From: an uncultured virus (IMG/VR IMGVR_UViG_3300027719_000270)
Taxonomy: Duplodnaviria; Heunggongvirae; Uroviricota; Caudoviricetes
DNA: 21,472 bases
Direction: 5' to 3' (one strand)
IMG/VR virus record: IMGVR_UViG_3300027719_000270
In this document: piece after piece, positions 1 to 21,472 of the stretch
How positions within the stretch are numbered: position 1 is the stretch's first letter
Layout of the letters: each line of letters starts with the position of its first letter
Notes under the pieces: generated by a model
What the model was told of the DNA's origin: nothing
Seen by the model: the letters and a program-made list of their open reading frames with translations, nothing else
Databases searched by the model: none
Translations under genes and position numbers: made by a program

Positions 1-272
1 TCATGTACAACCCCGTCATCATTCATATCGATAAGTGGAATCTTTTTCCCTTCTTCATAAAGAGCCAACCTGCCGCAAAGACATCCCTGCTTATTGCATA
101 TATGCGTTAACGCATGTACCGTTTTGTCTTGTAATTCTCTTTTTCTTGCGTTTGGGACGAGATCATGAGCTCTTTTGAAAAGATCCTCTAAATTGAAGTT
201 TAGATCTGGAGTTGTGCCATTTAATCCAACCGCTCTACGATAATTTATTTTCTTTATTTTTACTTCGCCCAT
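1..272 (-). CDS. Hypothetical protein, N-terminal 90 aa (runs off the left edge)
   Basis: Not in the ORF track. ATG at 272, open to base 1: MGEVKIKKINYRRAVGLNGTTPDLNFNLEDLFKRAHDLVPNARKRELQ...CGRLALYEEGKKIPLIDMNDDGVVH. AT-rich upstream spacer. Confidence 0.75.
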   Translation of the reverse strand, partial: MGEVKIKKINYRRAVGLNGTTPDLNFNLEDLFKRAHDLVPNARKRELQDKTVHALTHICNKQGCLCGRLALYEEGKKIPLIDMNDDGVVH

Positions 273-295
273 AAGATTGTAATTTATATTGTTAA

Positions 296-301
296 ATTAT
301 A
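296..301 (-). promoter_or_regulatory. Possible -10 element (TATAAT) for the ORF starting at 272
   Basis: Perfect TATAAT on the minus strand 23 nt upstream of the ATG. No canonical -35. The same TCGTATAA 8-mer lies upstream of the repressor (3063-3070). Confidence 0.35.
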
Positions 302-315
302 CGACATTTGTAATT

Positions 316-465
316 CTATCACCCTTTCAGCTCTGCAATCAAGCTTTTACGCTACTAACGTGAGACTTGTGCTCATTTTCTAAAGTGCTTAATGACGTGA
401 GCAGGCGGTCTATAAAGTCGGCTATGGGGTCTTTGGGGAGGGTTTAAGTTCGCAATCGCAAACCA
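316..465 (-). pseudogene. Degenerate copy of the 3' half of the gene at 1323-1580
   Basis: Aligns by eye to 1323-1474 with about 18 substitutions and two 1-bp deletions in T-runs. The corrected frame reads VCDCELK.LPKDPIADFIDRLLTSLSTLENEHKSHVSSVK.LIAELKG*. Confidence 0.85.
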
Positions 466-485
466 TTGTAGCAACGCTTGCTATA

Positions 486-569
486 TTATTTTCCCGGGTT
501 AGGCTTCGGCGGCGTTCTTATGGGTTTAGCCGGAGGAATGCTTCTCTTTTCCGAATTATTGTCAGCCAT
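486..569 (-). CDS. 27-aa Pro/Lys-rich peptide MADNNSEKRSIPPAKPIRTPPKPNPGK
   Basis: Below the ORF-track cutoff. ATG 2 nt after the stop of the upstream ORF, with GAGG SD-like sequence about 10 nt upstream. Shares a motif with the upstream ORF. Confidence 0.6.
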   Translation of the reverse strand: MADNNSEKRSIPPAKPIRTPPKPNPGK

Positions 570-571
570 AT

Positions 572-817
572 CTATTTTTCCTCTGAAGAAGCCGTTTTGG
601 AATTATTCTGCGGCTGGTCATTCGGTTTTCTTACTGCTTTCATTACAGGCGCAGAGTCCATCGCATAACTCTTAAAAATTGTTACTTCCGGCTGGTTTGC
701 TTTCTCATGAGTCTTTCTTACCGCCGCCATTGGCGGGATTGAGTTTGCCACAACCATTATTTCCTTTGTTTTGTTTATGCTTTTTTGAACATTACCACTA
801 TCGCCTTTATTACTCAT
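572..817 (-). CDS. Small hydrophilic, low-complexity protein with an internal repeated motif
   Basis: ATG at 817 overlaps the end of 810-1298 (alternative ATG at 823). Contains SIPPMAAVRK and SAPVMKAVRK. Confidence 0.65.
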   Translation of the reverse strand: MSNKGDSGNVQKSINKTKEIMVVANSIPPMAAVRKTHEKANQPEVTIFKSYAMDSAPVMKAVRKPNDQPQNNSKTASSEEK

Positions 818-1298
818 AACCATTAACCCTTTCAGTTTTAATTGGTTTAGTTAAACCATTGTCCTTTTCTGTGCTGCAAAATTTTCCAAAAGAAAAAAGT
901 AGTCCGATTGAAATTAGGGCTACGATAAAAGAAACTCTAATGAATATATTACACAAATCTGCGAATTTTCCGTAGCGATTTACGTTTTTTACAGCTGCCA
1001 TTCTTCCGTTTTCATCTAATTGATCATCATTTGCATCATAATGCGAATTACATGATATGGTAGCAACAATACAGGATACAACCTCAATGCCTACGCAGAA
1101 TAAAAATCCCCAAAAAGCAATATATAGAAAAATTTTATCAATTAGATTTGTAAATCTTGAGATAAAATCAATTTGGGTAAACATCAAAGCAATAGCACCG
1201 GAAGATACGCTAAGAATTAATTTAGATAAAAACAGAGAATTTTCCTCATATAAATGAAGGGAATATTGCCGCATTTGATTTTCTCTGTCTTCTTGCAT
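810..1298 (-). CDS. Hypothetical membrane protein (about 3 TM helices)
   Basis: Three hydrophobic stretches (LILSVSSGAIALMF; IFLYIAFWGFLFCVGIEVVSCIVA; IFIRVSFIVALISIGLLFSF). Very AT-rich. Confidence 0.8.
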   Translation of the reverse strand: MQEDRENQMRQYSLHLYEENSLFLSKLILSVSSGAIALMFTQIDFISRFTNLIDKIFLYIAFWGFLFCVGIEVVSCIVATISCNSHYDANDDQLDENGRMAAVKNVNRYGKFADLCNIFIRVSFIVALISIGLLFSFGKFCSTEKDNGLTKPIKTERVNGYE

Positions 1299-1322
1299 AT
1301 TGGCGATTTTACAAAAAAATAC

Positions 1323-1474
1323 CTATTCCCCTTTCAGCTCTTCAATCAAGCTTTTTACGCTACTAACGTGAGACTTATGGGCGGTTTCTAAGGTGTTTAT
1401 GGACATTTGCAGACGGTCTATAAAGTCGGCTATGGGTTCTTTGGGGAGGGTTTTAAGTTCGCAATCGCAGACCA
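1323..1474. repeat. Second copy of the 150-bp imperfect direct repeat (partner 316-465)
   Basis: Shared blocks include acgctactaacgtgagactt and cggtctataaagtcggctatggg. Confidence 0.9.
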
Positions 1475-1580
1475 CGTAGTCGGCGCCGTCTATGTTTATA
1501 ACATGTATAGCCTCTACGTCCCGCTTGCACTTTGGGCAGCGATAGGGAAACTTGAGGGGGATTTTTTTGCCTGAAACCAT
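1323..1580 (-). CDS. Small putative zinc-ribbon protein with C-terminal helix
   Basis: CPKC...CDC cysteine pattern, amphipathic C-terminus, 3 nt from the upstream stop. Confidence 0.7.
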   Translation of the reverse strand: MVSGKKIPLKFPYRCPKCKRDVEAIHVINIDGADYVVCDCELKTLPKEPIADFIDRLQMSINTLETAHKSHVSSVKSLIEELKGE

Positions 1581-1583
1581 GGG

Positions 1584-1898
1584 CTACTTTTGCTTTAATG
1601 CTTTTAGAATCTCGGCGTTTGACGCCTCAATGCGTGAGGCAGACTTGCATAATTGAGAGAGCGCAAGCAAAAGGGCCGCCGCAAGCAGGCTTGAAACAAG
1701 CGCGGATATCCCCCAGCCCTGCAATTTTGCTATGCTTAAAAATATGCACGCAAAAACGCCCGAGAGCATTTGCAAAACCGCAAAAACGTTCAGGATAAGG
1801 CAAATTGATGGTGCTTTATTGGGGTTTGACTGTTGCGCGTACTTTGAGGGATTTGGATTAAGTCCCAAGTTCTCAAGATCTGAATCAAGGTTTTTCAT
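1584..1898 (-). CDS. Hypothetical two-TM membrane protein
   Basis: AAGGAAG SD, two hydrophobic segments, N-terminal LGLNPNPSKY motif. Confidence 0.8.
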   Translation of the reverse strand: MKNLDSDLENLGLNPNPSKYAQQSNPNKAPSICLILNVFAVLQMLSGVFACIFLSIAKLQGWGISALVSSLLAAALLLALSQLCKSASRIEASNAEILKALKQK

Positions 1899-1940
1899 GT
1901 CGGCTTCCTTTTTTATTGGGGCGGATTTTTTTTGCCCATT

Positions 1941-2624
1941 TTATTCAAATTTTCTAGAGGCCTTCAATTCTTCTATCTTAAGCTCTATATCGTGAATATC
2001 AGACTCTAAGTCGCGTATTTTATCATATTTATCTTTATTCTCGCTAAATGGAAGTTGAGATACATCAACCTTTTCAATTTCTTTATTCAAAGCCTCAAGA
2101 GTTAAGTCATCAATTTTTTGGTATATTTCTTTTTTGCCCGGGCGTATGTCAAAATAGTAAACGTCTTCTCTATATTCATTTATATATAATGCCATCAGGA
2201 TAAAGGTTCCGTCCTCATTCGGTTTAACCTCGGCCTTAAAGTCATCATTGCTCCATGCGCCGTATCCATTTTGCATCGCAAGGCGGCCATAAATTTTATT
2301 TTCCTTAATATCGGCTTCCCGAATCTTATAATCAAACTTTGCTATTTTACCCAATTTACGTTCAACAGCGGCAATCTTTTCGTCTTTAATGCGCAACGCT
2401 TCGGCGGCTTGGGCTGCAAGTTCCTTTTGCTTAAAATGCGATTGGAGTTTGATTATCCCAAGGCTGAAAAGTAAGAGTACGGCAGCCGATGCGATATAAA
2501 TGTATTTTCTGGGGAATCTGCCAACTTTTCGATTTTCATGACACCCCGAATATTTTTTCGGATTAGGGTTAATCCCCATGCCTGACAACATTTTATCTGC
2601 ATCTTTTATCTGATTATTTTTCAT
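1941..2624 (-). CDS. Single-pass membrane protein with coiled coils (lysogen accessory; superinfection-exclusion candidate)
   Basis: AAGGAA SD, TM segment YIYIASAAVLLLFSLGII, charged helical tail. Lies 17 nt downstream of the repressor stop. Confidence 0.8.
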   Translation of the reverse strand: MKNNQIKDADKMLSGMGINPNPKKYSGCHENRKVGRFPRKYIYIASAAVLLLFSLGIIKLQSHFKQKELAAQAAEALRIKDEKIAAVERKLGKIAKFDYKIREADIKENKIYGRLAMQNGYGAWSNDDFKAEVKPNEDGTFILMALYINEYREDVYYFDIRPGKKEIYQKIDDLTLEALNKEIEKVDVSQLPFSENKDKYDKIRDLESDIHDIELKIEELKASRKFE

Positions 2625-2641
2625 GGATGTTCCTTCTTCGG

Positions 2642-3058
2642 TTACTTGTCAGCGTCAGACTCGTATCTTTTTGTTAAAAGCTCCAGAACTAATTCAAGCT
2701 TTGTTCGATCTCCATTTTCGTAAAGTTTTAAAAGCTCTATGGCTGTATCCACAATTTGGGATCTCGTCATTTTACTGTATACAATTTCGTATAAATCTAA
2801 AAGGCTCTGGTTATCTGTTTGGGCTTTACCTTGATTCGATTTTGATATGAAATCCTCGACACTTATTGAATCATCTTCAAGGAGAGCCTGGGATATTTTA
2901 AATTTTTCAGCTAAGGCGTTTAATGCCCTTGAATAGGGCTTTTGTCCATTAAACCATCTGGAAATCGTTGGTTGATTAACGCCAATTAAATCAGATAGCC
3001 CACGTTGCGTTAACCCGCTGCGCTTCATGAGGTATTTTATTTTCTCGGAAAAATGCAT
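2642..3058 (-). CDS. XRE-family HTH prophage repressor (Mu c / cI position)
   Basis: GLTQRGLSDLIGVNQPTISRWFNG HTH. Divergent from the Ner-like gene. No S24 peptidase domain apparent in 138 aa. Confidence 0.9.
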   Translation of the reverse strand: MHFSEKIKYLMKRSGLTQRGLSDLIGVNQPTISRWFNGQKPYSRALNALAEKFKISQALLEDDSISVEDFISKSNQGKAQTDNQSLLDLYEIVYSKMTRSQIVDTAIELLKLYENGDRTKLELVLELLTKRYESDADK

Positions 3059-3136
3059 AATTTTATACGATTTCGCTTGACCTGATATGATTTTTGATTC
3101 AAATTCGGCTCATAAAAACGGAAAACGCTATCTTAA
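3059..3136. promoter_or_regulatory. Divergent lysis/lysogeny promoter-operator region
   Basis: 78-bp AT-rich spacer between divergent HTH genes. TTGACC at 3077-3082 and inverted repeat TTTGA-T-TCAAA at 3093-3103. Confidence 0.65.
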
Positions 3137-3619: not shown

Positions 3620-4606
3620 ATGAATACAGAAAAACAACTCTATATGACGGCAGATGAGCTGATGCAGCTCCCCTGCCACCCACTGAGAAACAAGCAAATG
3701 TATGCGCCGATTGACCTCAAGGGCAAATCGACGGACGTAATCCTAAAAGGATACTTTGAGGATAGGCGGGAGGAAGACGAAGCTCTTGAGATGTCGGTAG
3801 CGCAGCTCGGCGTGCAAACCCCCGTAATTATCGACGAATTTAACCAAATAGTCGATGGCAAGCGCCGCATAAGGGCGGCCTACAAATTTGATAAGGGGAT
3901 GAAAATCCCCGTCCATATATGCCTTTCTGTCGAAGCGGAGCTTATTTTGGTAAACTCCATAATGCACTTAAGGCACCTGACAAAATTTCAACGCCTTTTT
4001 ACGGTATTTCCCTATGTGCGCGATATGGCAAACGCCCTGGTCGATATAGCCGCCCGTGCCAAAGTAAGTAATTTTAAAGCGGGTAATTCCCCAACAGCGC
4101 AAACTTTGCGCTCTCGGGATGACGAGGCGCAAAATATTGCGGACTCCGTTGTTTATTACGGTGACGGTAAGCGAGTTGTAAGGCTCTTTCGCCTTGAAGA
4201 CTTGGCGCAACTCTTAAGCGTTTCGGCACGTTACCTTAATTACGTCAAGGGTATATATGACGCCATAGATGCAGCCGAAGATCCGGAGAGCGCGGCGGTC
4301 ATAGCCTATAGGTGCATATTTTGCGACAGCACACCTATTGAGCGCATAGCAAGCGCGGTGGGCGGCGCGTTTTCAGAGCGCAACACCGCCGATGAGGCAA
4401 ACCGCCCCATGAGCGAACTTTTGGGCAAAGTTGAAAAAGCCCTTGAAACCTTGGCTCTGCGCGTAAGCAAAGACTCAATTTTGCATGACGCCGCGGCCAT
4501 GGAAGAACTCGGCAAACGCTTTGAAACGTTCGCCTTAAAACTACCCGCCGAACTGCGCGACATTTTGTCAAAAAAACTTCGCGCGGCACAGCAGATAACA
4601 AAGTAG
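3620..4606 (+). CDS. ParB/Srx N-terminal domain protein with downstream HTH-like segment
   Basis: GVQTPVII...IVDGKRRIRAA ParB box, N...RHLT motif, LAQLLSVSARYL HTH-like segment. Confidence 0.8.
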   Translation: MNTEKQLYMTADELMQLPCHPLRNKQMYAPIDLKGKSTDVILKGYFEDRREEDEALEMSVAQLGVQTPVIIDEFNQIVDGKRRIRAAYKFDKGMKIPVHICLSVEAELILVNSIMHLRHLTKFQRLFTVFPYVRDMANALVDIAARAKVSNFKAGNSPTAQTLRSRDDEAQNIADSVVYYGDGKRVVRLFRLEDLAQLLSVSARYLNYVKGIYDAIDAAEDPESAAVIAYRCIFCDSTPIERIASAVGGAFSERNTADEANRPMSELLGKVEKALETLALRVSKDSILHDAAAMEELGKRFETFALKLPAELRDILSKKLRAAQQITK

Positions 4607-4610
4607 CGCC

Positions 4611-6392
4611 ATGAAAAGCACCTACACGCAGCATGAAAAGGCCGAGTTTGTCGCACGCGTCGATGAGCTTATGCGCTTTGAAAACCTGTCACAAAACGCG
4701 GCCGCTGCGCGTGTGGGTGTAACGGGCGCACAGGTGCTTAAGTGGCGCCGCGCCCTGCTTGCGGGCGGCGTCACCGCACTGCAAAACAGATACGCCGCCT
4801 GCGGCCGCAAACCAATGTATGTGCCGACAGAAGCGGAATCTCAGGCCTTGCGCGAGCTTGTTTTGAATACCGACCCCACAAGCGGCGCGCGCGTCAATAA
4901 AATATTGGCGGCGCAACTTTTTGCGCGCGATGAGCGTTGCTCTGACGCTCTGCGGGCGATACTTGAAAATTTGGGCATGTCGCGCCGAGCTTTGCCGCCG
5001 ACAATCGCCAAGGCAATGCACGTGCGCAAGTCTGATAAGGACCTATTGCGCGGCGGCAAGCGTTACGCCCTTGAGGGGCTTGTAACCCCGCGCGAGCTGT
5101 CTTACATTGACGAAATGGGCGCTATTCAAGCCCTTATGCCGGGCGACCTTTGGGAGAGCGACGACATGCATTTAAACGGCATGTTCTGGGTACCGTGGGA
5201 GAGCGACACCGACAAATGCGCAACAAAATTCGGCTGCCGCGTCTTCAGGGCGCAGCTCTTGCCTTTTTTGGATGTGGCGACGGGCGGCTTTGTTGCCTAC
5301 TCTTTAATCTTGCGCGAAAGCGACGCCTACAAGGCCGAAGACATCCGCTGGGCGCTGTCGCACCTGTTTAACACGGTGGGCGTGCCGCGCACCCTGCGCT
5401 TTGAGCACGGTTCTTGGGCGTCAAACGCCGTAGAAAGCATAGAAAAAGACATACACGTATGCCGCATTGTCCATGCAAAAACCGCCAAGGGTAAAATCAT
5501 AGAGGGGCGCTTTAACGTCCTACAACGCGTGCTTGCGGTCAACGAAATACACCTGGGCCGCAAACGCGGAGAGTTTGAATGGGCAAACTCTCAATGGATG
5601 GCCTACCGCAACGGCGTGCGCGATCCGCGCAAAGAAATCCCGAGCCTTGCCGAACAGGTGCAGCGCTTAGACGCCGCCTTTGCCTTTGTGAACAACAAGC
5701 CCATGAATGGGGAGCTATACGGCCCCGACAACGCCAAAAAGCTGCATAATTTGCCCTACTGGATACCGCAACAGATTGCGGATAAATTTTATTTGGATAA
5801 CCCGGCACCCCGCAAGCCCGAGCTTGAAGAAATGCTCGCGGTCTTGCCCGCCGCGCGCGACGTTTCAATCCGCAACGGCCTTGTGCGCGTTAAGATGGAA
5901 GATTTTGGCGGGGTGTATTATTTCCACAGCCCCGAATTTGCGCGCGTGGGCGACGGGTGGCCCGTTCGGGTATGCTTTGACCCGACCGATCCGGAAATGG
6001 GCGCCGGCATACTTTCGCAACGCGATACCGACGATGCGCGCAACCTTTTAAATATCAAGCGCGGGGCGTTTATTTGCCGCGCGGCGTATGTTGAACGCGT
6101 GCCGCAATTTGCCGTAGGCGGCGGCGACACGCTGGGCTTTGACCGAGCAAAGCGCCACGCAAAGCTTGCCCATTTACTTTTTAGGGAAATTGTGCCGGCG
6201 CACCGCCACCGCGGCGTCACCGTGCACGAATTCCGCAGCGGCACGTCCGGGGAACGCACCGAGGTGCGGGGGCTTTTGCCCGCGCAAGCGCCGTGCCCGA
6301 CAGTCGCGCCGCGCCGCAGCGCGGCAGAACCCGCGCCAAGCGACCGCCGAGGGGCGGCCATAGACGTGGAAAAGCTTTTTACGGTTGAGTAA
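4611..6392 (+). CDS. Mu A-like DDE transposase
   Basis: N-terminal HTH, PGDLWESDD, FLDVATG, GVPRTLRFEHG, KGKIIEGRF, and C-terminal VRVCFDPTD segment. Directly upstream of a B-like ATPase. Confidence 0.92.
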   Translation: MKSTYTQHEKAEFVARVDELMRFENLSQNAAAARVGVTGAQVLKWRRALLAGGVTALQNRYAACGRKPMYVPTEAESQALRELVLNTDPTSGARVNKILAAQLFARDERCSDALRAILENLGMSRRALPPTIAKAMHVRKSDKDLLRGGKRYALEGLVTPRELSYIDEMGAIQALMPGDLWESDDMHLNGMFWVPWESDTDKCATKFGCRVFRAQLLPFLDVATGGFVAYSLILRESDAYKAEDIRWALSHLFNTVGVPRTLRFEHGSWASNAVESIEKDIHVCRIVHAKTAKGKIIEGRFNVLQRVLAVNEIHLGRKRGEFEWANSQWMAYRNGVRDPRKEIPSLAEQVQRLDAAFAFVNNKPMNGELYGPDNAKKLHNLPYWIPQQIADKFYLDNPAPRKPELEEMLAVLPAARDVSIRNGLVRVKMEDFGGVYYFHSPEFARVGDGWPVRVCFDPTDPEMGAGILSQRDTDDARNLLNIKRGAFICRAAYVERVPQFAVGGGDTLGFDRAKRHAKLAHLLFREIVPAHRHRGVTVHEFRSGTSGERTEVRGLLPAQAPCPTVAPRRSAAEPAPSDRRGAAIDVEKLFTVE

Positions 6393-6413: not shown

Positions 6414-7400
6414 ATGGAAAATCCAATCATCACAGAAATCGGTCAGTTGGTTACGCGTTGCGAGAAGCACCAAAAGGCTTTGGGGCTCTCGGACAACGCT
6501 TTTGCGGTTAAATACCGCGATTTTGTGGGCAGTTCAAAAACGTGGCGCCAGCGCCTTTGCGGCGGCAATTACGAGGGCGTTAAATTGGACCGCATACTTA
6601 AAAAGCTCCGCAATTTTGTAAGCCTTTTGGACGGCGGGGCTGCCATGGAGCAAATCTATGACGATTTGCCAATATTCCAGCAGTTTATCGGGCGCTACAA
6701 CCGTCTGCAAAGCGCGCGCACAGACAGGCGCGTGATGGTGTTTTTGGGAGAGACGGGCGTCGGCAAATCGGTATGCGCACGCCATATTCTGCGCGAAAGC
6801 CCGTCGGAAACCGCTTACGTGCGTTGCCAGCCTACTTGGAAAGATAATCATTTAGCTATATTAAACGGAATTTTGCGCGCACTCGGCAAAGACCAGGTAT
6901 CGCGCAAGGCAAAGGCGCTTGAGATGGTGCTTGAGCACCTTAAAAGCAACCCGATGACGGTAATATTCGACGAGGCGCACGACGGCGGGGTGGTGCTGCT
7001 TAAGCTTATTAAGAGCTTGGTAGATGAAACGCCCTGCAAGTTTATAGTTATGGCATATCCGACTTTGTGGAAGCGCATGCTCCTTGCAAGTTCAGACGCC
7101 CACGCCGAGGCGCGTCAGCTTTTTGGGCGCACGCAAAAGCCCGTATTTGACCGCTATGCCGGCGGTACAACAGCGGATAACATAGAGGTATTTTTAAAAC
7201 GCTCTACGGCGCTTAACGGCTCATCCAAAGACGTGGCCGCGCAAATCTTGGAAATTGTGCGGCATAACGGGAATCTGCGCCTGGTGGCGGACATTGTGGA
7301 CGCCGCCGACGCGCTTTATATGGAGACCGAAGAGGAACTTGACGGTCCCAAGGTTATAAAACTGGCGCAAGAACTTTCAAACCCGGGAGGTGCGAAGTGA
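6414..7400 (+). CDS. Mu B-like AAA+ transposition ATPase
   Basis: Walker A GETGVGKS, Walker B VIFDEAH, C-terminal GNLR motif. Confidence 0.92.
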   Translation: MENPIITEIGQLVTRCEKHQKALGLSDNAFAVKYRDFVGSSKTWRQRLCGGNYEGVKLDRILKKLRNFVSLLDGGAAMEQIYDDLPIFQQFIGRYNRLQSARTDRRVMVFLGETGVGKSVCARHILRESPSETAYVRCQPTWKDNHLAILNGILRALGKDQVSRKAKALEMVLEHLKSNPMTVIFDEAHDGGVVLLKLIKSLVDETPCKFIVMAYPTLWKRMLLASSDAHAEARQLFGRTQKPVFDRYAGGTTADNIEVFLKRSTALNGSSKDVAAQILEIVRHNGNLRLVADIVDAADALYMETEEELDGPKVIKLAQELSNPGGAK

Positions 7401-8565: not shown

Positions 8566-8811
8566 ATGAGCAAAAATAAAACAGAACAAGCCCCTGCGGC
8601 GAATAAAATAATTTGCCCTAATTGCGGCAAAGAAATGCAGATGAGCGTAAAGCTGGTCTATAATGAAAAATGGTTAGCAACATTGGCTTGCCCAGGCACG
8701 GACTGCGCGGCTCCTGAATTTTGCGGGATTGCCAAAACCAAAGCATTGGCGGAAGCCGAAGCCCTTGCGGCTTTTAATATGCAGAAAGGCGCAGAAAATG
8801 GCCAAGCTTAA
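8566..8811 (+). CDS. Small zinc-finger protein (Lar/restriction-alleviation-like pattern)
   Basis: CPNCG...CPGTDC followed by EAEALAAFN. The family call is by pattern only. Confidence 0.6.
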   Translation: MSKNKTEQAPAANKIICPNCGKEMQMSVKLVYNEKWLATLACPGTDCAAPEFCGIAKTKALAEAEALAAFNMQKGAENGQA

Positions 8812-9307
8812 GATTAGGCAAATTGCCACGGCTGCAGAATTTTTTGAGTCTGTGGACGATTGCGCCGTTAAACAGGCGCGCGTAGAAAGGCTTGAGGCAG
8901 AGCTTAAAAGCAAAATTGTGGCGCTTCAGGTTAAGTATTCCGCAGATATCGACCCGCTTAAAAAGGACGTTGAAAAGCTTTTAAACGAATGTTCCGACTA
9001 CGCCTCTTTACACCACACCGAACTTTTCGGCAAAAACAAGAGTGCCGCCACCACCGTGGCAGATTACGGCTTCAGGACAGGCACACCAAAACTGGTAAAG
9101 CTTGTTAAAAGCAAAGAAGAGGATGTGGCGCTGTCTTTGGAAAACGAGGACGGCGGCGCTTATGTCTCAAAAAAGCTTAGTCTTGACAAGGAAGCGATCA
9201 AGTCCGCGTTGGAGCGCGGCGTAGAAAGTCTGAAGCGCCTGTTCCGCGTGGATCAGGACGAGGCTTTTTTTATCAACCCTAAGGCAGATGATACAAGAAA
9301 GGCGTAA
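8798..9307 (+). CDS. gam: Host-nuclease inhibitor Gam
   Basis: Coiled-coil N-terminal half, ELFGKNKS...YGFRTGTPKL, LDKEAIK, QDEAFFINP. ATG at 8798 gives 169 aa, typical of the family. Confidence 0.9.
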   Translation: MAKLKIRQIATAAEFFESVDDCAVKQARVERLEAELKSKIVALQVKYSADIDPLKKDVEKLLNECSDYASLHHTELFGKNKSAATTVADYGFRTGTPKLVKLVKSKEEDVALSLENEDGGAYVSKKLSLDKEAIKSALERGVESLKRLFRVDQDEAFFINPKADDTRKA

Positions 9308-10956: not shown

Positions 10957-12378
10957 ATGATAACAAAACCCATCAGTAACGACGAAGCGGCGGCGCACTT
11001 AAAAACCAAACCCGTACTGTCGGCCGGCGCATATTACAAGCTTGCGCCCGAGCTTAAGGCGCGCGCGTTTACAATATCCGGCATTAACTCTGTAGATACC
11101 ATGAGGTCGGTGCGCGACATTTTGGCCACATTGCCGCAGGGCCGCAACTGGGATGATGTAAAAGACGATATCGCAGAAAAACTGCGAGAAAAGTGGGGAG
11201 AGAATGAAAACGCCGTCCAACGTCGCGCCGAGCTGCTTTTGCGCAAACACGGCCTTGATGCCTATCGCGTCGGCCAGTTTGAGGCCGCGCAACGCACCAA
11301 AGCCCTGATGCCCTATTTTAAGTGGATAGCCACCAACGACCAAAAGACGCGCCCAAGCCACGCCGCGCTGCACGGCTTGGTTTTACCTGTCGACCATCAG
11401 TTTTGGGATGACCACATGCCGCCCGGTTGGGCATGGAATTGCCGTTGCCAAGTTGTGCAGGTATCTCAACTTGACTATGACGAGCAAGTGGAGCTTGAAA
11501 GGAATATCCCGCCAGAGCGCCGCAGGGCGCTTACTGAAGCCCAAGCCCAAGATTTGCTGCGCAACGAGCGCCTGCAAACGGGGCCCGACAGCGCAGCTAT
11601 TGTGCGCTCTGACATGGAGTCCGGCTCAAACCCCAAAAATTTAAAAATGTCTGCGTCTGAAATTTTGCGCCGTTATGACGCGGCGGAGCAAGCCGCATTA
11701 CTGGCCGAGCTTGACGCCGTAGAACTGCCCGAATACGAATCGAAATATACCGCGCGCGACTGGTTTGAGAATAAACCCGCACCGTCGTTTAAAGAGCCGC
11801 AGCCCCGTCCGCTTACGGATAATATACAAATCGATTCAAAAACCCTTGCCCCAAGCGTTAAGCGCGGCTTTGACGGCGCGGTTGAGTCAATTTGGAAAGC
11901 GCACGGCGCGTGCGAAATGCCCACGTGTACACTCGTCTCTGCCCCCATAACAAACCAGGGCGAGTATGACCCAAATACGCGCACCATTACAATAAACCCG
12001 CTCGCCAAAAATCCGCAACTTACAATAATGCATGAGGCGGCGCACTACTTATCACATAAGGGGTTTGGCGTGCGCGACAAGTTGTCGGCAGGCACCGACA
12101 AAAAACTCTCCGCGCTTATGAAAACCATTGACGCAAGCAGCCGCGTAAGCGTATTAAAGTTAAAGCGCGACATGGGAGAGGCAGACAAAGATTATAATTA
12201 TTTGTTGCAAGACGAAGAACTCTTCGCGCGCGTCTATACTCAATATGTTGTGACCAAAAGCGGACAAGCCGAGCTTTTGAATAATTTGGATACCGACTAT
12301 TATTGGCCGCCGAAGGAGTTTGAGGGAATATCAAACAAATTGGAAACACTCTTTAAGAGATTAGGCTGGAGGCTGTAA
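10957..12378 (+). CDS. MuF/gpF minor head protein with C-terminal HExxH zinc-metallopeptidase extension
   Basis: MuF motifs KARAFTISG, NDQKTRPSHAALHG, FWDDHMPP, WNCRC. C-terminal TIMHEAAHYL (HEAAH at 12031-12045) and EELFAR (12214-12231). Confidence 0.9.
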   Translation: MITKPISNDEAAAHLKTKPVLSAGAYYKLAPELKARAFTISGINSVDTMRSVRDILATLPQGRNWDDVKDDIAEKLREKWGENENAVQRRAELLLRKHGLDAYRVGQFEAAQRTKALMPYFKWIATNDQKTRPSHAALHGLVLPVDHQFWDDHMPPGWAWNCRCQVVQVSQLDYDEQVELERNIPPERRRALTEAQAQDLLRNERLQTGPDSAAIVRSDMESGSNPKNLKMSASEILRRYDAAEQAALLAELDAVELPEYESKYTARDWFENKPAPSFKEPQPRPLTDNIQIDSKTLAPSVKRGFDGAVESIWKAHGACEMPTCTLVSAPITNQGEYDPNTRTITINPLAKNPQLTIMHEAAHYLSHKGFGVRDKLSAGTDKKLSALMKTIDASSRVSVLKLKRDMGEADKDYNYLLQDEELFARVYTQYVVTKSGQAELLNNLDTDYYWPPKEFEGISNKLETLFKRLGWRL

Positions 12379-14588: not shown

Positions 14589-15503
14589 ATGATTATTAAT
14601 AAATCAAACATCGCCCTTGCAGTACAGGGCTTCAGAGCCTTATTTAACAACGCTCTCAACGGTACCGTTCCCAACGATACGGGCCGCAAGCTGTCAATGG
14701 TGGTGCCCTCAAGCAACGCCACGGAAACCTGGGCGTGGCTTGAACACCTTGCCGGCATGAAAGAACTCCTCGGCGAAGTCAAAATTGAAAATATCGCCGC
14801 GGACTCTTACACCATTGCCAATAAGGAGTGGGAGCTAACGGTCCAGATTCCGCAGGCCGACTTTGAGCGCGATTCTTACGGCAAGTATCGCAATTTGATA
14901 TCGGGGATGCCAGCAAAGAGCCGCAGCCACGACAGCCAAATGGTCGCAAAACTACTGTGCGGCGGCTTTGACAATACGTGCTATGATGGCAAGAAGTTCT
15001 TTGCAACGGATCATGCGTATAAAAATAACGACAAGATCACGTTCTCAAACAAGCTGACAAAAAAGCTTTCGGCAACGCAGTTTGAAACCGCGCGCAAAAT
15101 GATTAAAACCGTCCGCCGCGCGGATGGCGAAAGCATGGAGCTCGGCGCCGATCTGTATCTCATAGTGTCGGCCAAAAACGAAAGTTTGGCAAAGTCCATA
15201 GTGGAGGCCGAACGCAATGCCGACGGCTCGACTAACGTCAACAAGGGCACCGCAAAAATCATCGTTTGGAGCGCTATCGACGTGCTCGGCGAAGACATGT
15301 GGTTCTTGGCCGACTTGGGGCAAGTCACCATCATGCCCTTTGTCATTCAAGAGGAAAAGTCCGTGGAGCTCATAGAGGTTACAGACCTTGAAGATTCTCG
15401 CGTGGTCACCACCCACCAGTTCTTGTTCCAAGCCTATAAACGCACGGGCTACGGCTACGGTTTCCCGCAGCTAGTTGTGGGCTCTACCGGCGCACAAGCT
15501 TAA
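14589..15503 (+). CDS. Mu-like major capsid protein gpT
   Basis: VPSS...W.WL...GMKE, YTIANKEWELTV, CYDGKKFFATDH, WFLAD, GYG..Q motifs; 304 aa. Confidence 0.93.
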   Translation: MIINKSNIALAVQGFRALFNNALNGTVPNDTGRKLSMVVPSSNATETWAWLEHLAGMKELLGEVKIENIAADSYTIANKEWELTVQIPQADFERDSYGKYRNLISGMPAKSRSHDSQMVAKLLCGGFDNTCYDGKKFFATDHAYKNNDKITFSNKLTKKLSATQFETARKMIKTVRRADGESMELGADLYLIVSAKNESLAKSIVEAERNADGSTNVNKGTAKIIVWSAIDVLGEDMWFLADLGQVTIMPFVIQEEKSVELIEVTDLEDSRVVTTHQFLFQAYKRTGYGYGFPQLVVGSTGAQA

Positions 15504-16496: not shown

Positions 16497-17492
16497 ATGG
16501 GCTTCAAAGCACAACCAATAAAAGTCATCAAGGGGCCTTGCTTCGTAAAATACGGTGCAAACGCCTTTGTCACAAAGGGCGACGTCAAAGTCGCATTTAA
16601 GGGCACCTATGAAAAAATCCCCACGGGCACCGGCGGCAACATAGGTTCAATGCTGGTAGGCATGCGCGCCGATATAACATTCTCGCCGCGAGAATTTACC
16701 GCGCTTGCGGCACTCTTTGCGTTTAAAGATTGGGTTGCTGGGCAGCCTATATTTTCTGACGCGGGCGGCGCCGATGAGGTTTTAAGCATATATTCAGCCA
16801 GCACAAGCGCGGCGGGCAAGACCGACGAGCTTGAGTTTTCGCGCGCAGGGCAGACTGGCTTTTCGGCGCTGACTCTCGGAGTTAAGGCGGACCCGCTCGC
16901 GGATTTAACGTATACCGCACTGCCAAATCTTCGTCGAGGCGGCCTTACCGACCGCGGCGTGCTTGCGCTTGAGACGGTCATAGACGCCCCCTTTACGGTG
17001 CCCGCCTTGGTACCTGCAAACATTATGCGCATACCCGCGATTGGCAAAATCGGCGACATCTATTTTGACATGGATGACGGCGCGCAAATTACCTTCAATG
17101 TGCCGACAACCGAAGACAGCACCTGCCGCACGGGCGTGCATAACCTAATCTGCGGCGACATCGAAGTAAGCGCGCAGTTAAAAGCAAAAAATATCTCCGA
17201 ATCCGATTGGCGTTCTATCGCCAAGCTTTACGGCACTACTGCGCTCGGCGGCGTGTTGGGTCTTACAGCGCCCGATCTTATCTTGCGCGGCGCCAAGGCG
17301 GGCGATTACCAATTCACGCTGCCGCGCGCAGAATGCGATACGGATAAGGAGCTTTTGTTCTCTCGCACCGAAAACCGTTTTGGCGCGCTCACATTCAACT
17401 CTTACGGCGATGATGCCGGCAAGCGGTTCTTGGTTGCGCTCGCCGCGGCCGATGTCGCCTTTGATGACTTAGCGCCGCTGCCCGCGGCTTAA
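16497..17492 (+). CDS. Putative major tail tube protein (non-contractile type)
   Basis: Strong AAGGA SD. IKGP..V..G...TKGDVKV.F N-terminus typical of tube proteins; beta-rich. No sheath gene before it. Confidence 0.6.
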   Translation: MGFKAQPIKVIKGPCFVKYGANAFVTKGDVKVAFKGTYEKIPTGTGGNIGSMLVGMRADITFSPREFTALAALFAFKDWVAGQPIFSDAGGADEVLSIYSASTSAAGKTDELEFSRAGQTGFSALTLGVKADPLADLTYTALPNLRRGGLTDRGVLALETVIDAPFTVPALVPANIMRIPAIGKIGDIYFDMDDGAQITFNVPTTEDSTCRTGVHNLICGDIEVSAQLKAKNISESDWRSIAKLYGTTALGGVLGLTAPDLILRGAKAGDYQFTLPRAECDTDKELLFSRTENRFGALTFNSYGDDAGKRFLVALAAADVAFDDLAPLPAA

Positions 17493-17496
17493 TATT

Positions 17497-17994
17497 ATGC
17501 TGCCCGCGCGGATAGAGTTTGCAGGTATGGTATTGGGCGAGGTGGGTATCGACGGCGTTTACGCGATTGATACACGCCTCGTCTCGATTGCGCGCGAAAC
17601 ACAGACAATTAAACTACGCGGGGCGCTCTTCCCCCACCAAATTTCCGCGCGCAAAACCAGCGCAGTATTAAGCGTAACGGTATCGCGCACCATGCCGTCA
17701 GTCTATACTGCGGAGCGTTACGAAATTGCCCACGCGACAAAACTGGCCGAGCTTGAGGGCGGCAATGTGCGCGCTGATACCGCGCGTAACACATACATTG
17801 CGCCATACGCACAGCTTGCGGGCATCACGCCGCAGCGCAACGGCATAAACGTTAAGATGACCTATGAGTTTCTCTGCGGGCGCATAGACACCGCATGGGC
17901 GCTTGTCGCAAAAATCGGCATGGATGCAACGCCCGCGCGCTTACTCATGCGTTTAAACGGCGTCGAAACAATACCAACCCTAGAAAAAATTTAA
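17497..17994 (+). CDS. Putative tail tip/distal-tail-like protein
   Basis: Beta-rich 165 aa after the tube gene. The fold guess is by pattern only. Confidence 0.45.
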   Translation: MLPARIEFAGMVLGEVGIDGVYAIDTRLVSIARETQTIKLRGALFPHQISARKTSAVLSVTVSRTMPSVYTAERYEIAHATKLAELEGGNVRADTARNTYIAPYAQLAGITPQRNGINVKMTYEFLCGRIDTAWALVAKIGMDATPARLLMRLNGVETIPTLEKI

Positions 17995-17995
17995 T

Positions 17996-18265
17996 ATGGC
18001 AAATTTACCTGACGTCCAAATCGGCGATATTACGCCAAACCCCACCTTGCCCGACACCGCAAAAATCCCCTGGAGCGAGGGGGCAATAACATACGCCGCG
18101 CTTTACGCGCAAATAAAGGCCGCGCTTTTGGCGGACATACGCGCAAGCGGCCTTACGCTTGAGGGCGCGCTTTTGCTCAAAAACAAAGAGTCTGCGGCGC
18201 TTGAAGAAATCGCAATCACCACAAACGCCCAAGGCGTCTCAATCCCGTTTGTACCAGAGGAGTAA
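17996..18265 (+). CDS. Small tail-associated protein resembling fibre N-terminal segments
   Basis: QIGDITP...LPDTAKIP...G.TY...AQIK resembles the KISELP-type starts of fibre proteins. Begins 1 nt after the previous stop. Confidence 0.55.
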   Translation: MANLPDVQIGDITPNPTLPDTAKIPWSEGAITYAALYAQIKAALLADIRASGLTLEGALLLKNKESAALEEIAITTNAQGVSIPFVPEE

Positions 18266-18269
18266 TTTT

Positions 18270-19850
18270 ATGATTAAAAAAATTTTACCATTGATTATTT
18301 TAATGGCGGCCTCGCAGACCGTGCAGGCGGCCTATAACCGCCCGCTTACGGTGGATGAGTCGGAGCACTTGCACCCGGGCAGCAATTTTATTGTCAATAA
18401 TGACCTCGCCACAAATGCGAGCGTGCTGTCCGCCCTCGATGATTTTACGGGCGGCGACCTGACGGGGCTGCTTGTTAATTACGTAACCAATACGCAGCTC
18501 ACCGCGGCGCTCGCCTCTTTTGCGCAGACTGCGGACTATTATACTAAGACATACATTGACGCCACATATTACACCAAGACGGCGGGCGATGCGCGCTACG
18601 CGCTCAAAACCGACGTGCCCACAATCGCAACGCTCACGCCCGGCACGGGCATTACGGGTACGGATTTTAACGGCAGCGCCGCGGCAACGTGGAGCCTCAA
18701 CCAAACGTACATCGACGGCCGCGCAAATACCGTTGCCACGCAGCTCATAGACGCCCGCCTGCCGGAGCAAAAAAAATACCCCGTATTTTTAATAGATACC
18801 TCCGGCGGGTTTTCTGATGCCGAGGTTAAGGGCTGTTTGCCTTATTATTCTGCGGATTTCGTGCGCCTTTGGTATACCACCACCACCGCCGCAGACAACG
18901 CCACGGGCTACCGCACCAACGCCAAGGCGGACATTTACGCCGACATATTCTTTACGTCCCCGGATATCCCCCTCATAGACGCGCGTCGCATTATCCAATT
19001 TGTTCCTGAGGCTTATAACACAATAGCCGCACAGGCGGCCGCAATGTCGGCGCTTTCTGCGGGGCCCGCCGTGCCCGCAATAGGCGGCATTGAGATTTGG
19101 CCAAACGTAAGCGCGTACATAGGCGATCCGGTCGAGGTGCCTGTGGCCGCTTTTTTCGAGCCTGAAAATAACCCCGCTTATATTGACCCGTCTAAATACG
19201 TCGCAAACCCGGGGGCAACAGACGGCAGCGTGTCTTTTGTTGCCACGCGTTTAACGCCTACGGATTTTGAGCGGTCAGCCGCGGGCAATCCTATATATCG
19301 CCCCATCATGCCTTTTTACTGCCTAAAAACCCGCCCCGTCCAATACATCTTGCGCGATGAGCAGTTCGGCGATGTGGCCGACCTTTTAATCTGGCCGCGC
19401 GGTTTGCGCATAAGCGCGGCCACGCGCATTACAAGCGGCCTTCCCGCAGGCTATGTCAGCGGCGTCCAAATCAGCGGTTATAGGGTATTGGGGGAGTTCT
19501 CGGGCTCGGCGGGGCTGGTCTATTACCCATATACCTTTGAGGCGGGCAAAACTTATATGGTTATCACGTCGGCGTGGGTTAAGGCCGTCAGTGCAACGCC
19601 GACAGCCAAAATCGGCATAGGTGTATACACATCGTTTTTAAACTCAACCTATGTTAATCGCGGATGGAGTTTTGGCGCGATGAGCAGCACCGCTTGGACA
19701 AAAATGACCTACATTACGACATTTGTCTGCTCGGCCTCTACCACTACAAACGCGCAGAAAATCGGCATAATGGTAGGCATACAAGGCTCGGACACGGTCT
19801 GCACCGCGCAAATCACAGGTCTGACCGTTGCGGCAATTCAACTTGATTAA
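18270..19850 (+). CDS. Tail-fibre/adhesin-like protein with N-terminal signal peptide (526 aa)
   Basis: ATG 4 nt after the previous stop with GAGGAG SD. MIKKILPLIILMAASQTVQA-A signal, YYTKT repeats, GDARY, TLTPGTGITGTDFNGS, and a C-terminal beta-sandwich-like region (FEAGKTY...AWVK...WTKM). Confidence 0.75.
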   Translation: MIKKILPLIILMAASQTVQAAYNRPLTVDESEHLHPGSNFIVNNDLATNASVLSALDDFTGGDLTGLLVNYVTNTQLTAALASFAQTADYYTKTYIDATYYTKTAGDARYALKTDVPTIATLTPGTGITGTDFNGSAAATWSLNQTYIDGRANTVATQLIDARLPEQKKYPVFLIDTSGGFSDAEVKGCLPYYSADFVRLWYTTTTAADNATGYRTNAKADIYADIFFTSPDIPLIDARRIIQFVPEAYNTIAAQAAAMSALSAGPAVPAIGGIEIWPNVSAYIGDPVEVPVAAFFEPENNPAYIDPSKYVANPGATDGSVSFVATRLTPTDFERSAAGNPIYRPIMPFYCLKTRPVQYILRDEQFGDVADLLIWPRGLRISAATRITSGLPAGYVSGVQISGYRVLGEFSGSAGLVYYPYTFEAGKTYMVITSAWVKAVSATPTAKIGIGVYTSFLNSTYVNRGWSFGAMSSTAWTKMTYITTFVCSASTTTNAQKIGIMVGIQGSDTVCTAQITGLTVAAIQLD

Positions 19851-19867
19851 ACAAAACGGACAAACCC

Positions 19868-20251
19868 ATGCAAAAAAAATCTTTAATAAAATTCTCTTGC
19901 TGGCTATTCGCCGCCTCTTTGGCGTCTTGCCAACCCGCGCACGCGCAAGCGGGGCTTGCGGTGCCGACAGAGTTTGCGGCCTTTGGCAAAACCCTATCGC
20001 TGTCGTATGAGGTGCATAACTCAAGCGCAGACCCCGCGCGCGATTTTGCGCGCCTACAAGCCGCCGCCGAGGCGCAATATACCGCGCTTTGCCCGGGGCG
20101 TCTCAAAGTAAACCTCTCGCCCATGTCGTATTTTGGGCAATGGCGCGCGGCTCTCATAAAATCAAACGCCGCCGCCGCAGACTGGCAAAAATTTTACACG
20201 GTTTTAAACACTGAGCTTCAAAACCAACAAAAAATCAAAAAGGAAAACTAA
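19868..20251 (+). CDS. Exported protein or lipoprotein, unknown function
   Basis: MQKK plus hydrophobic core, then LASC (lipobox-like, Cys21) and AHA-Q (SPase I-like). Confidence 0.7.
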   Translation: MQKKSLIKFSCWLFAASLASCQPAHAQAGLAVPTEFAAFGKTLSLSYEVHNSSADPARDFARLQAAAEAQYTALCPGRLKVNLSPMSYFGQWRAALIKSNAAAADWQKFYTVLNTELQNQQKIKKEN

Positions 20252-20917
20252 ATGAAAAAACTACTCTCTATTATATTCTGCACCGCGCTGCTATTAGTAT
20301 GCGGTTGGTCGTCTACCATGGCCGCAACCTTTGCGGAGCTTGCGGCAAGCTTGCCCGATGACGCCAAGCTCCGCCCCGCAGCCGCAAAGGCGATATTGAC
20401 CAACGGCGATAACCTCGCGATTATCGGCGTAGAGTTTGACAAGGTCAGCGGTGAGACTGTTGTCTACACCGCACTTTTTACGGTCGAAAAGGAGCGCATA
20501 CTTTTGACGTATTACGCGGAAACTCTGACACCGTCTGAAGGCAATATGCTCTCGATGTGCAGGGTTGCCCGCGCGCGCTTTGCAAAGCTTGCGTCTGCCG
20601 AGCTTTACGCCGCCGCGCTCGGCTCTCCAAACCTCTCCGAGATTGAAAAATTGTCCCTGCAAATACACCGCGGCGACCTTGCGGAGTTTTGGGCATTAGA
20701 CCCCTCGCTCTTTGACGCCGGCCAAGCAACGGCTTTTTTAAACAAACTCGAAAAACTGAGGCTGCAAAAGTCCGATTCGGACTGCTTTGAAAAATACATG
20801 CAGCTTTGCAAAGTGTGGGTAGATAAGGCGGCATTTGCAGACCAATACGCCCGCGCCGTAAAGCTGCGCGACTATTATTTTGCGGCGCTCCAGAGCGCGC
20901 AGATACTAAACCAATAA
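20252..20917 (+). CDS. Exported alpha-helical protein, unknown function
   Basis: AAGGA SD; MKKLLSIIFCTALLLVCGWSSTMA-A signal-like N-terminus. Confidence 0.75.
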   Translation: MKKLLSIIFCTALLLVCGWSSTMAATFAELAASLPDDAKLRPAAAKAILTNGDNLAIIGVEFDKVSGETVVYTALFTVEKERILLTYYAETLTPSEGNMLSMCRVARARFAKLASAELYAAALGSPNLSEIEKLSLQIHRGDLAEFWALDPSLFDAGQATAFLNKLEKLRLQKSDSDCFEKYMQLCKVWVDKAAFADQYARAVKLRDYYFAALQSAQILNQ

Positions 20918-20938
20918 ACAAAAACAAAAGAGGCAATC

Positions 20939-21472
20939 ATGAAAAAATTACTGATAATATTTGGAGCGGCCTTGTCCGCATTTACTCTCGGTGGGTGCGC
21001 AAATACCACGAAGATTCTCGAAACGACCTACGCCGAAGACGGTAAAACCGTTGCGAAAACCATAGAGACTGAAACCGATGAAAGCATAGGCTCAATCTTG
21101 GCAAAAGCGTATGTCGACGACTCGAAAAATAAGTTCCGAGTTGTTTGGATGGACGCCAACAAATTTGACCTGGGTATTACCTATACCAGCGGCGTGCCGA
21201 CTTTGGGCGTAGGCTACCTGTCTATGAACGGCGGCTTTATTGATGTTCCGTTCAAGGTCGACGGAACCCCTCTCATAACCTTAGACAAGGATGCGGTAGG
21301 ATATTTGGCCAACATCGTCAAAGCCACTAAGCTCGACATGGGGGTTTCATACGATAATAGCGGAGACTTCTCATTCGGTACAGGCAGCTCTGCATCGGCA
21401 ACATCGGCAAACGCTGCAGTTCAAACTGATAATACGTCTGCCGTATCGACAACGGCAACCGAAAACAAGTAA
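20939..21472 (+). CDS. Lipoprotein, unknown function
   Basis: GAGG SD; MKKLLIIFGAALSAFTLGG-C lipobox (Cys20); Ser/Thr/Ala-rich tail. Stop codon at the window end. Confidence 0.8.
   Translation: MKKLLIIFGAALSAFTLGGCANTTKILETTYAEDGKTVAKTIETETDESIGSILAKAYVDDSKNKFRVVWMDANKFDLGITYTSGVPTLGVGYLSMNGGFIDVPFKVDGTPLITLDKDAVGYLANIVKATKLDMGVSYDNSGDFSFGTGSSASATSANAAVQTDNTSAVSTTATENK

Follow-up and report, generated by a model that had tools for sequence, protein, structure and literature searches.

A fibre-like protein with a predicted signal peptide heads four consecutive genes with export signals in the putative tail operon of a Mu-like prophage

In tailed phages, virion assembly is regarded as an entirely cytoplasmic process, and most of the phage proteins known to be exported are small factors for exclusion or conversion. 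Llp of T5, Cor of T1 and phi80, and Lom of lambda are exported proteins encoded beside receptor-binding genes. Neisseria Mu-like prophages carry inserts encoding surface-exposed antigens, as stated in parts of PMC9779448. Outside phages, parts of Caulton et al. (2024; PMC10769870) describe the MAT fibres of Bdellovibrio bacteriovorus, which combine a signal peptide, a conserved beta-rich domain and variable adhesive tips. Here, we analyze an uncultured virus record, IMG/VR IMGVR_UViG_3300027719_000270, a stretch of 21,472 nucleotides (hereafter the window) that represents a Mu-like transposable prophage, with gene families assigned by Pfam/PHROG matches. Close to its right end, the window encodes a 526-aa fibre-like protein (p526) with a predicted signal peptide, directly followed by three further genes with export signals (p127, p221, and p177).

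Signal peptides were called by one fixed heuristic plus conservation across homologues. The N-terminus of p526, MIKKILPLIILMAASQTVQA/A (the slash marks the predicted cleavage site), has a positively charged n-region, a 10-residue h-region, and V-Q-A at -3/-1. A preliminary description of this DNA, made from the letters alone, had read the same VQA/A signal, and both the heuristic and nine of nine homologues agree with it. It had also proposed signal peptides for the next three open reading frames (ORFs), one or two of them with lipoboxes; all three indeed carry such signals, of the Sec type, and lipoboxes are found in two, p127 and p177, while p221 begins with a hydrophobic 16-mer (Table 1). 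The L-L-V-C17 sequence of p221 does not form a canonical lipobox. The four ORFs lie at the coordinates described earlier and are as tightly packed as had been claimed, with gaps of 0-21 nt within and around the cassette; the ATG of p221 abuts the p127 stop. At this p127/p221 junction, a 35-base stretch (20231-20265) spanning the ribosome-binding site (RBS) and the MKKL start recurs in other contigs of two runs, with unlike sequence on either side of the copies. This recurrence could be a chance match or a common junction of swapped cassettes.

The heuristic flags five of the 35 ORFs in the window, and four of these are the consecutive p526, p127, p221, and p177. The remaining one is the protease gene, called with a TTG-extended start; the Pfam match of this protein begins only at residue 28, and the gene start is probably mis-called. 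As a background, 171 ORFs of at least 100 aa lie downstream of the major head protein gene T in 25 related Mu-like viral loci, and three of them pass the same heuristic. Hence, four signal-bearing genes in a row are far above background. Searches of the four proteins and their neighbours against Pfam, PHROG, NCBIfam, and PADLOC returned no family beyond weak signal-only matches, such as those of p177 to lipoprotein families, which are confined to its signal. PDB sequence searches with a p526 family profile (A1), p331, p221, and p177 gave nothing meaningful, and A1 had no match at E up to 1; the PDB sequences of MAT fibres are, to our knowledge, tip fragments only.

The longest ORF in the p526 frame opens 111 nt earlier, at a TTG, and thereby overlaps with p89 (window 18159-18269). 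Judged from the sequence, the ATG at 18270 is the p526 start. It is preferred because the Shine-Dalgarno sequence GAGGAG lies 8 nt 5' of it, because the homologue P0005 aligns with p526 from residue 2 on and through the fibre repeats, and because the substitution pattern upstream of it follows the p89 frame. The preliminary description had named homologues that lack the hydrophobic N-terminus or start further downstream as evidence against export; the hydrophobic start is kept in all nine, and the p526 start is placed at the ATG at 18270.

A HMMER search of 1.84 billion representatives (E <=0.001) retrieved 16 proteins, namely the query, nine short proteins (258-459 aa), and six long ones (619-2,111 aa). 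The nine short homologues have the same central domain as p526, with D183, E185, K187, and R239 invariant, and most of them have the TLTPGxGLxG...W motif. According to the heuristic, all nine start with a signal peptide, the position of which is conserved. The six long fibre proteins match p526 residues 62-159 only, in 4-11 stretches each; one contains Mtd_N and Peptidase_S74, one contains PTR, and a signal peptide is predicted by the same heuristic in none. As the signal is kept in 9/9 homologues and in a close relative (see below) but in 0/6 ordinary fibres, export can be taken as the trait that defines the family. The sequences suggest that p526 has shaft repeats in common with ordinary fibres, yet is a member of a rare family defined by predicted export. 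Three of the short members (P0012, P0013, and P0016; 258-344 aa) are reduced to the signal, a short N-terminal region, and the central domain, and thus the conserved core of the family is not a long fibre. Cysteines are not conserved across the family.

Searches by tblastn with p526, P0004, and P0016 found no member of the family in 50,697 phage genomes, and none was found in the 25 related Mu-like loci. The neighbouring proteins p331, p883, and p332 likewise had no tblastn match in the phage collection. Scans of genome contigs with p526 and P0012 gave no match, scans of viral contigs with p526, P0002, P0005, p331, profile A2, p883, and p332 returned the window itself only, and a word-indexed protein search with p526 and profile A1 returned the query alone. 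In six of the nine homologues (P0002, P0011, P0012, P0013, P0015, and P0016), Gln stands right after the predicted cleavage site (A/Q or G/Q). Gln in this position is typical of secreted proteins of Bacteroidota, and these Bacteroidota-like sites suggest that the p526 family probably spans several phyla.

Four parts can be distinguished in p526: the signal peptide, fibre-type repeats, a family-specific central domain, and a C-terminal beta-sandwich resembling carbohydrate-binding modules (CBM). Both fibre-type motifs that had been quoted for the 526-aa ORF are present in the translation, at residues 89-110 and 121-143, while p526 has no match to the Pfam PTR repeat family. The full-length monomer model is poor (pLDDT 55, residues 15-118 below 50); fibre shafts often score low in monomer models. 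The central domain modelled alone (AF2) reaches a pLDDT of 74 and a pTM of 0.72, and its comparison with the PDB gave generic Ig-like matches only (best VIA Z 4.1; Foldseek E >0.3). The C-terminal sandwich, the model of which is of moderate confidence, matches 6zps (VIA Z 9.9), CBM22 (9.3-9.0), and CBM4-2 (8.9), and, among phage proteins, a phi812 baseplate chain (8.9), the K2-2 tailspike (8.9), and the Douge central fibre (8.0). These alignments cover about 135-152 residues at an rmsd of 3.1-3.8, and 39 chains have Z >=8. The Foldseek search that the preliminary description had recommended was informative for this domain (E 3e-4 to 1e-3, TMt 0.5-0.57) and gave no match for the central domain at E <=0.001; BFVD matches of the sandwich are tail and tail-fibre proteins. 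According to the predicted structure, the C-terminal domain has the jelly-roll fold of CBM4/9/22-type beta-sandwiches. By sequence, p526 has no Pfam CBM match at E up to 10.

The window appears to be cut from a 215,576-base metagenome contig, of which the portion examined is called L001, and it ends at the p177 stop. In L001, the gene of an 883-aa protein (p883) begins at the very next base (TAAATG). Ala-rich composition, internal repeats, and a Gly-rich hydrophobic segment are typical of tape-measure proteins, which p883 resembles (Table 1). Several internal repeats of the ALEREIARR...AGL(S/T)Q(A/S)EAA type occur in p883, and the protein has no family or phage-genome match. Upstream of the cassette, the Atlas model of p331 (pTM 0.73) resembles a cluster with PF18906 Phage_tube_2 (TM 0.61/0.73, 252 aligned) and passes the naming bar of the tool; Pfam, PHROG, and PDB sequence searches with p331 gave no match, and its two homologues share 44-45% identity. 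A consensus scan, whose consensus may not be that of the host, counted 10 promoter-like sites (8.0 in shuffled sequence) and 15 terminator-like sites (16.8 in shuffled sequence). The GC content of the cassette (0.49-0.56) is like that of the flanking genes. Given the 0-21 nt junctions, the shuffle-level promoters and terminators, and the even GC content, the sequence places the cassette, insofar as it can tell, on the late tail transcript and inside the late tail operon. That the four ORFs belong to a tail operon had been claimed from the window, where it is invisible; it is borne out by p883 downstream and by the tube-like p331 upstream. An autonomous insert (moron) was considered as well, against which stand the even composition and the lack of an evident promoter or terminator of its own.

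Three freshwater DNA runs contain the complete window and may be where it came from. Contigs of two wastewater runs from another study match window 17875-20918 only, with an identity of 85-100%. The shared block consists of the end of p165 followed by p89, p526, p127, and p221, and both flanks are unlike; its breakpoints lie inside p165 (17875) and just after p221. In this relative, the p221 stop is followed by ATGGCCGAC..., the first three codons of which are identical to those of p883. This 30-letter loose end suggests that the relative is without p177 and has p221 directly upstream of its own tape-measure-like gene. The 39 differences listed in this comparison, beyond which there are 100 more, affect 36 codons (29 synonymous and 7 non-synonymous changes). 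Among the differences listed, nine synonymous and two non-synonymous changed codons fall in p89, and I5L is the sole change in the signal peptide of p526. By this measure, p89, p526, p127, and p221 are under purifying selection. The block would be a conserved, selected, and exchangeable unit whose position within the tail operon is constant; p177, present here and absent in the relative, would be accessory. Among the runs listed for the window, none is of RNA. Despite their RNA-Seq label, X5 and X6 are probably DNA runs and uninformative on expression.

Five genes without a family match, encoding 149, 145, 331, 165, and 89 aa, lie between T and p526 (Table 1). No canonical, in-phase -1 slippery heptamer was found between p165 and p89, and neither p89 nor any of the three partners of p526 resembles the long fibre proteins or an ORF of the related loci. 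On the right, the p332 gene (332 aa) overlaps the p883 stop (ATGA) and is the sole gene after p883 before the right end of the element. The two GGCGGTTACA repeats look like Mu-type right-end transposase sites, similar to attR, and beyond the integrase fragment follow host genes for a permease and an aminotransferase. The corresponding attL was not located, as the right-end repeat has no inverted copy in the window. In the roughly 25 kb seen (window 1-21472 and L001 13204-16980), no ORF is big enough for a portal or large terminase, and family searches recognised no lysis genes. Because portal, terminase, and lysis genes are missing from these 25 kb, the element may be defective or helper-dependent (satellite-like).

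Table 1. Features of the Mu-like element and of its exported cassette (window coordinates unless marked L001).
Feature	Position	Strand	Basis or remark
Repressor	2642-3058	-	
Transposase	4611-6392		
MuB-like ATPase	6414-7400		
Gam	8729-9307		
MuF-like protein	10957-12378		
G-like morphogenesis protein, then protease I, then cement/scaffold-like protein	between MuF-like protein and T		
Major head protein T	14589-15503		
p331, tail-tube-like protein, opens tail module	16497-17492	+	Atlas model fold match
p165, function unassigned, position of tail assembly chaperone	17497-17994	+	position only; no family match
p89, small, without signal peptide, travels with exported block	17996-18265	+	no family match
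p526, exported fibre-like protein (predicted), 526 aa	18270-19850	+	GAGGAG RBS; nine remote homologues with signal peptides
p526 signal peptide, residues 1-20	18270-18329	+	predicted cleavage VQA/A
p526 fibre-type repeat region, residues 62-160	18453-18749	+	HMMER; YYTKT repeats, TLTPGxGIxG...W motif
p526 central domain, residues 160-350	18747-19319	+	alignments A1 and A3; invariant D183, E185, K187, R239
p526 C-terminal CBM-like beta-sandwich, residues 356-524	19335-19841	+	predicted structure, VIA/Foldseek
p127, predicted lipoprotein, 127 aa	19868-20251	+	lipobox L-A-S-C, Cys21
p221, N-terminal hydrophobic signal or signal-anchor, 221 aa	20252-20917	+	hydrophobic 16-mer, then T-M-A/A
p177, predicted lipoprotein, Ser/Thr-rich tail, putatively accessory, 177 aa	20939-21472	+	lipobox L-G-G-C, Cys20
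p883, tape-measure-like protein	L001 13204-15855		18.6% Ala; one Gly-rich hydrophobic segment 206-228
Two direct GGCGGTTACA repeats	L001 16892-16901 and 16971-16980		about 40-130 nt past p332
Integrase N-terminal fragment, 172 aa	L001 17175-17693		just beyond the GGCGGTTACA repeats

Some further observations concern the remainder of the element. Window 1-3100 forms an AT-rich arm (32-46% GC against 50-57% elsewhere) with six minus-strand ORFs behind the repressor that have no PHROG or PADLOC match; these are possibly accessory or defence cargo, or flanking host DNA. Between a Ner-like gene and the transposase, a 328-aa protein (window 3620-4606) has a weak match to the ParB N-terminal domain, which is an unusual gene to find in the early region of such an element. 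The window contains no Neisseria uptake sequence, and the layout of a Helicobacter Mu-like record (H9) differs from that of the element.

Building on what is observed, namely the signals and how they are conserved, the domains of p526, the place of the cassette in the operon, and purifying selection, we infer, somewhat short of an even chance, an envelope-targeted late cassette in which a fibre-derived receptor- or glycan-binding protein acts together with lipoproteins in the host envelope. The four genes would be expressed late from the tail operon of a Mu-like, siphovirus-type element, and their products would leave the cytoplasm. p526 would take the Sec route, with its signal removed by signal peptidase I, while p127 and p177 would be lipid-anchored and p221 membrane-anchored or periplasmic; these three would be envelope partners of p526 or act alongside it. 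Derived from a tail fibre, p526 would most likely bind an envelope glycan or receptor of the cell that produces it. The likeliest purpose would be to mask or occupy a receptor or wall glycan, which might either exclude superinfecting phages or prevent the loss of progeny on debris; functionally, the cassette would then be akin to Llp, Cor, or Lom, except that a fibre-derived protein does the work. We favour this envelope cassette because export defines the family, the neighbours are predicted envelope proteins, the short members are without fibre and tip parts, and the family is missing from the phages queried. The accessory behaviour of p177, the CBM-like sandwich (Z 8-10), and the four consecutive signals count as further support, as do the precedents of Llp, Cor, and Lom and of the surface-antigen inserts in Neisseria Mu-like prophages. 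Several points weigh against it. The cassette is without the usual marks of an accessory insert (0-21 nt gaps, abutting stop-starts, shuffle-level promoters and terminators, and even GC), and in the diverged relative it is found at the same location, after p165/p89 and before the tape-measure-like gene. On the element, where only p332 follows p883, no further candidate for receptor binding is seen, and Pfam, PHROG, NCBIfam, and PADLOC searches gave no sequence similarity to known exclusion proteins. Moreover, if the host is a diderm, a soluble p526 with a Sec signal only would stay periplasmic and could not reach a surface receptor.

As an alternative, p526 would be the receptor-binding fibre of the virion; its folding would take place in the periplasm or beyond the membrane, and it would be added to the tail only at lysis or in the lysate, with its partners helping it to fold, holding it, or releasing it. 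We consider such a two-compartment assembly rather unlikely, and its narrower form, a Sec-exported receptor-binding fibre that is attached outside the cytoplasm at or after lysis and is held or chaperoned by a small envelope set, unlikely. For a virion fibre speak the translational coupling between tube-like and tape-measure-like genes without a sign of separate expression, repeats homologous to those of true phage fibres, a tip domain resembling those of tailspikes and fibres, the absence of another receptor-binding candidate, and the swapping of p89-p526-p127-p221 as a unit between diverged relatives, as is seen for host-range modules. In addition, T4 and P22 particles can accept fibres or tailspikes that are supplied in vitro. 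On the other hand, no Sec-exported fibre of a tailed phage is known to us, and literature text searches found no description of one or of two-compartment tailed-phage assembly. None of the phage genomes queried has a member of the family, its short members are without fibre and tip parts, non-conserved cysteines make oxidative folding no obvious reason for export, and an element without portal, terminase, and lysis genes in 25 kb may make no virions alone. The preliminary description had also proposed display as an adhesin on the lysogen surface. In this reading, p526 would be exposed on or released from the cell, with a lipoprotein as its anchor, and would alter the adhesion of the host. This is quite improbable in our view, even though a signal peptide, fibre repeats, and a variable tip of carbohydrate-binding type occur in one protein whose gene adjoins lipoprotein genes, 21/21 Bdellovibrio MAT fibres start with a signal peptide (parts of PMC10769870), and Neisseria Mu-like prophages encode surface antigens (parts of PMC9779448). 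Lysogen expression would lack an evident promoter, as the genes run into the tape-measure-like gene; p526 has no lipobox, no outer-membrane translocator is visible should the host be a diderm, and the family profile A1 matches no PDB sequence at E up to 1. Least probable of all, and very doubtful, is a lysis set with p221 as the inner-membrane part, p127/p177 as the outer-membrane lipoprotein, and p526 as a periplasmic wall-binding helper. It would account for the absence of a recognised endolysin, holin, or spanin elsewhere on the element and for a membrane-anchored protein beside lipoproteins, and late co-expression would fit. However, no PHROG or Pfam lysis family is matched, no endolysin or holin adjoins, p221 has a mixed strand/helix composition without a long coiled coil, mature p127 (106 residues, 3.9% proline) and mature p177 (157 residues, 1.7% proline) are long and proline-poor, known spanin pairs have the opposite of the lipoprotein-then-anchor order seen in p127 and p221, and p177 is dispensable in the relative. 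The partners hence do not resolve as ordinary holin or spanin proteins; the preliminary description had named the opposite outcome as fatal to its proposal. Taken together, the lysogen adhesin and the lysis role are less likely than the envelope cassette and the virion fibre. The earlier interpretation is partly supported: its premises withstand those of its refuting conditions that were checked, and the virion-joining fibre and the lysogen adhesin both remain proposals. It had overlooked an exported class like Llp, Cor, and Lom as well as a defective or helper-dependent element, either of which would weaken the case for p526 as receptor-binding fibre of this virion.

The locus thus presents a protein of tail-fibre ancestry that has a family-wide signal and is wired into a tail operon instead of forming a separate insert. 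Should p526 act in the envelope, the phage would be deploying a copy of its receptor-binding machinery on its host in a novel manner; should it become part of the virion, tail assembly could extend over two compartments. In both cases, p526 defines a family and a testable cassette.

Among the known systems, Llp of T5, Cor of T1, phi80, and N15, and Lom and Bor of lambda are like the cassette in having signals or lipoboxes, in lying in or next to the tail-fibre region, and in acting in the envelope of the host; the small predicted lipoproteins p127 and p177, encoded directly downstream of a fibre-like gene, are of the general Llp/Cor kind. The cassette differs from these systems in that it shows no sequence similarity to them, comprises four genes led by a 526-aa fibre-like protein, is translationally coupled between the genes in tube and chaperone position and the tape-measure-like gene, and is without an evident promoter, terminator, or composition shift of its own. 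Its even composition is also unlike that of the inserts in Neisseria Mu-like prophages, which are reportedly atypical. Two-component spanins (Rz/Rz1) consist of a coiled-coil inner-membrane protein followed by a short proline-rich lipoprotein beside endolysin and holin genes, a pattern that the cassette does not follow. Intercalated surface-protein genes as such are likewise found in Neisseria Mu-like prophages (parts of PMC9779448).

In its architecture, p526 is analogous to the MAT fibres, with a signal peptide, a conserved domain, and a variable tip. MAT fibres are encoded by chromosomal genes of a predator, measure 800-1,150 aa, and many have S74 chaperone-protease ends, whereas p526 has 526 aa, is without S74, and is encoded inside a prophage tail operon. 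With ordinary fibres and tailspikes, p526 shares the LTPGxGxxG/YYTKT-type repeats and the tip-like sandwich (Z 8.0-8.9). Its central domain is without a clear structural match. Ordinary fibres assemble in the cytoplasm and have no signal peptide (0/6), whereas p526 carries its signal where the virion-attachment domain would sit.

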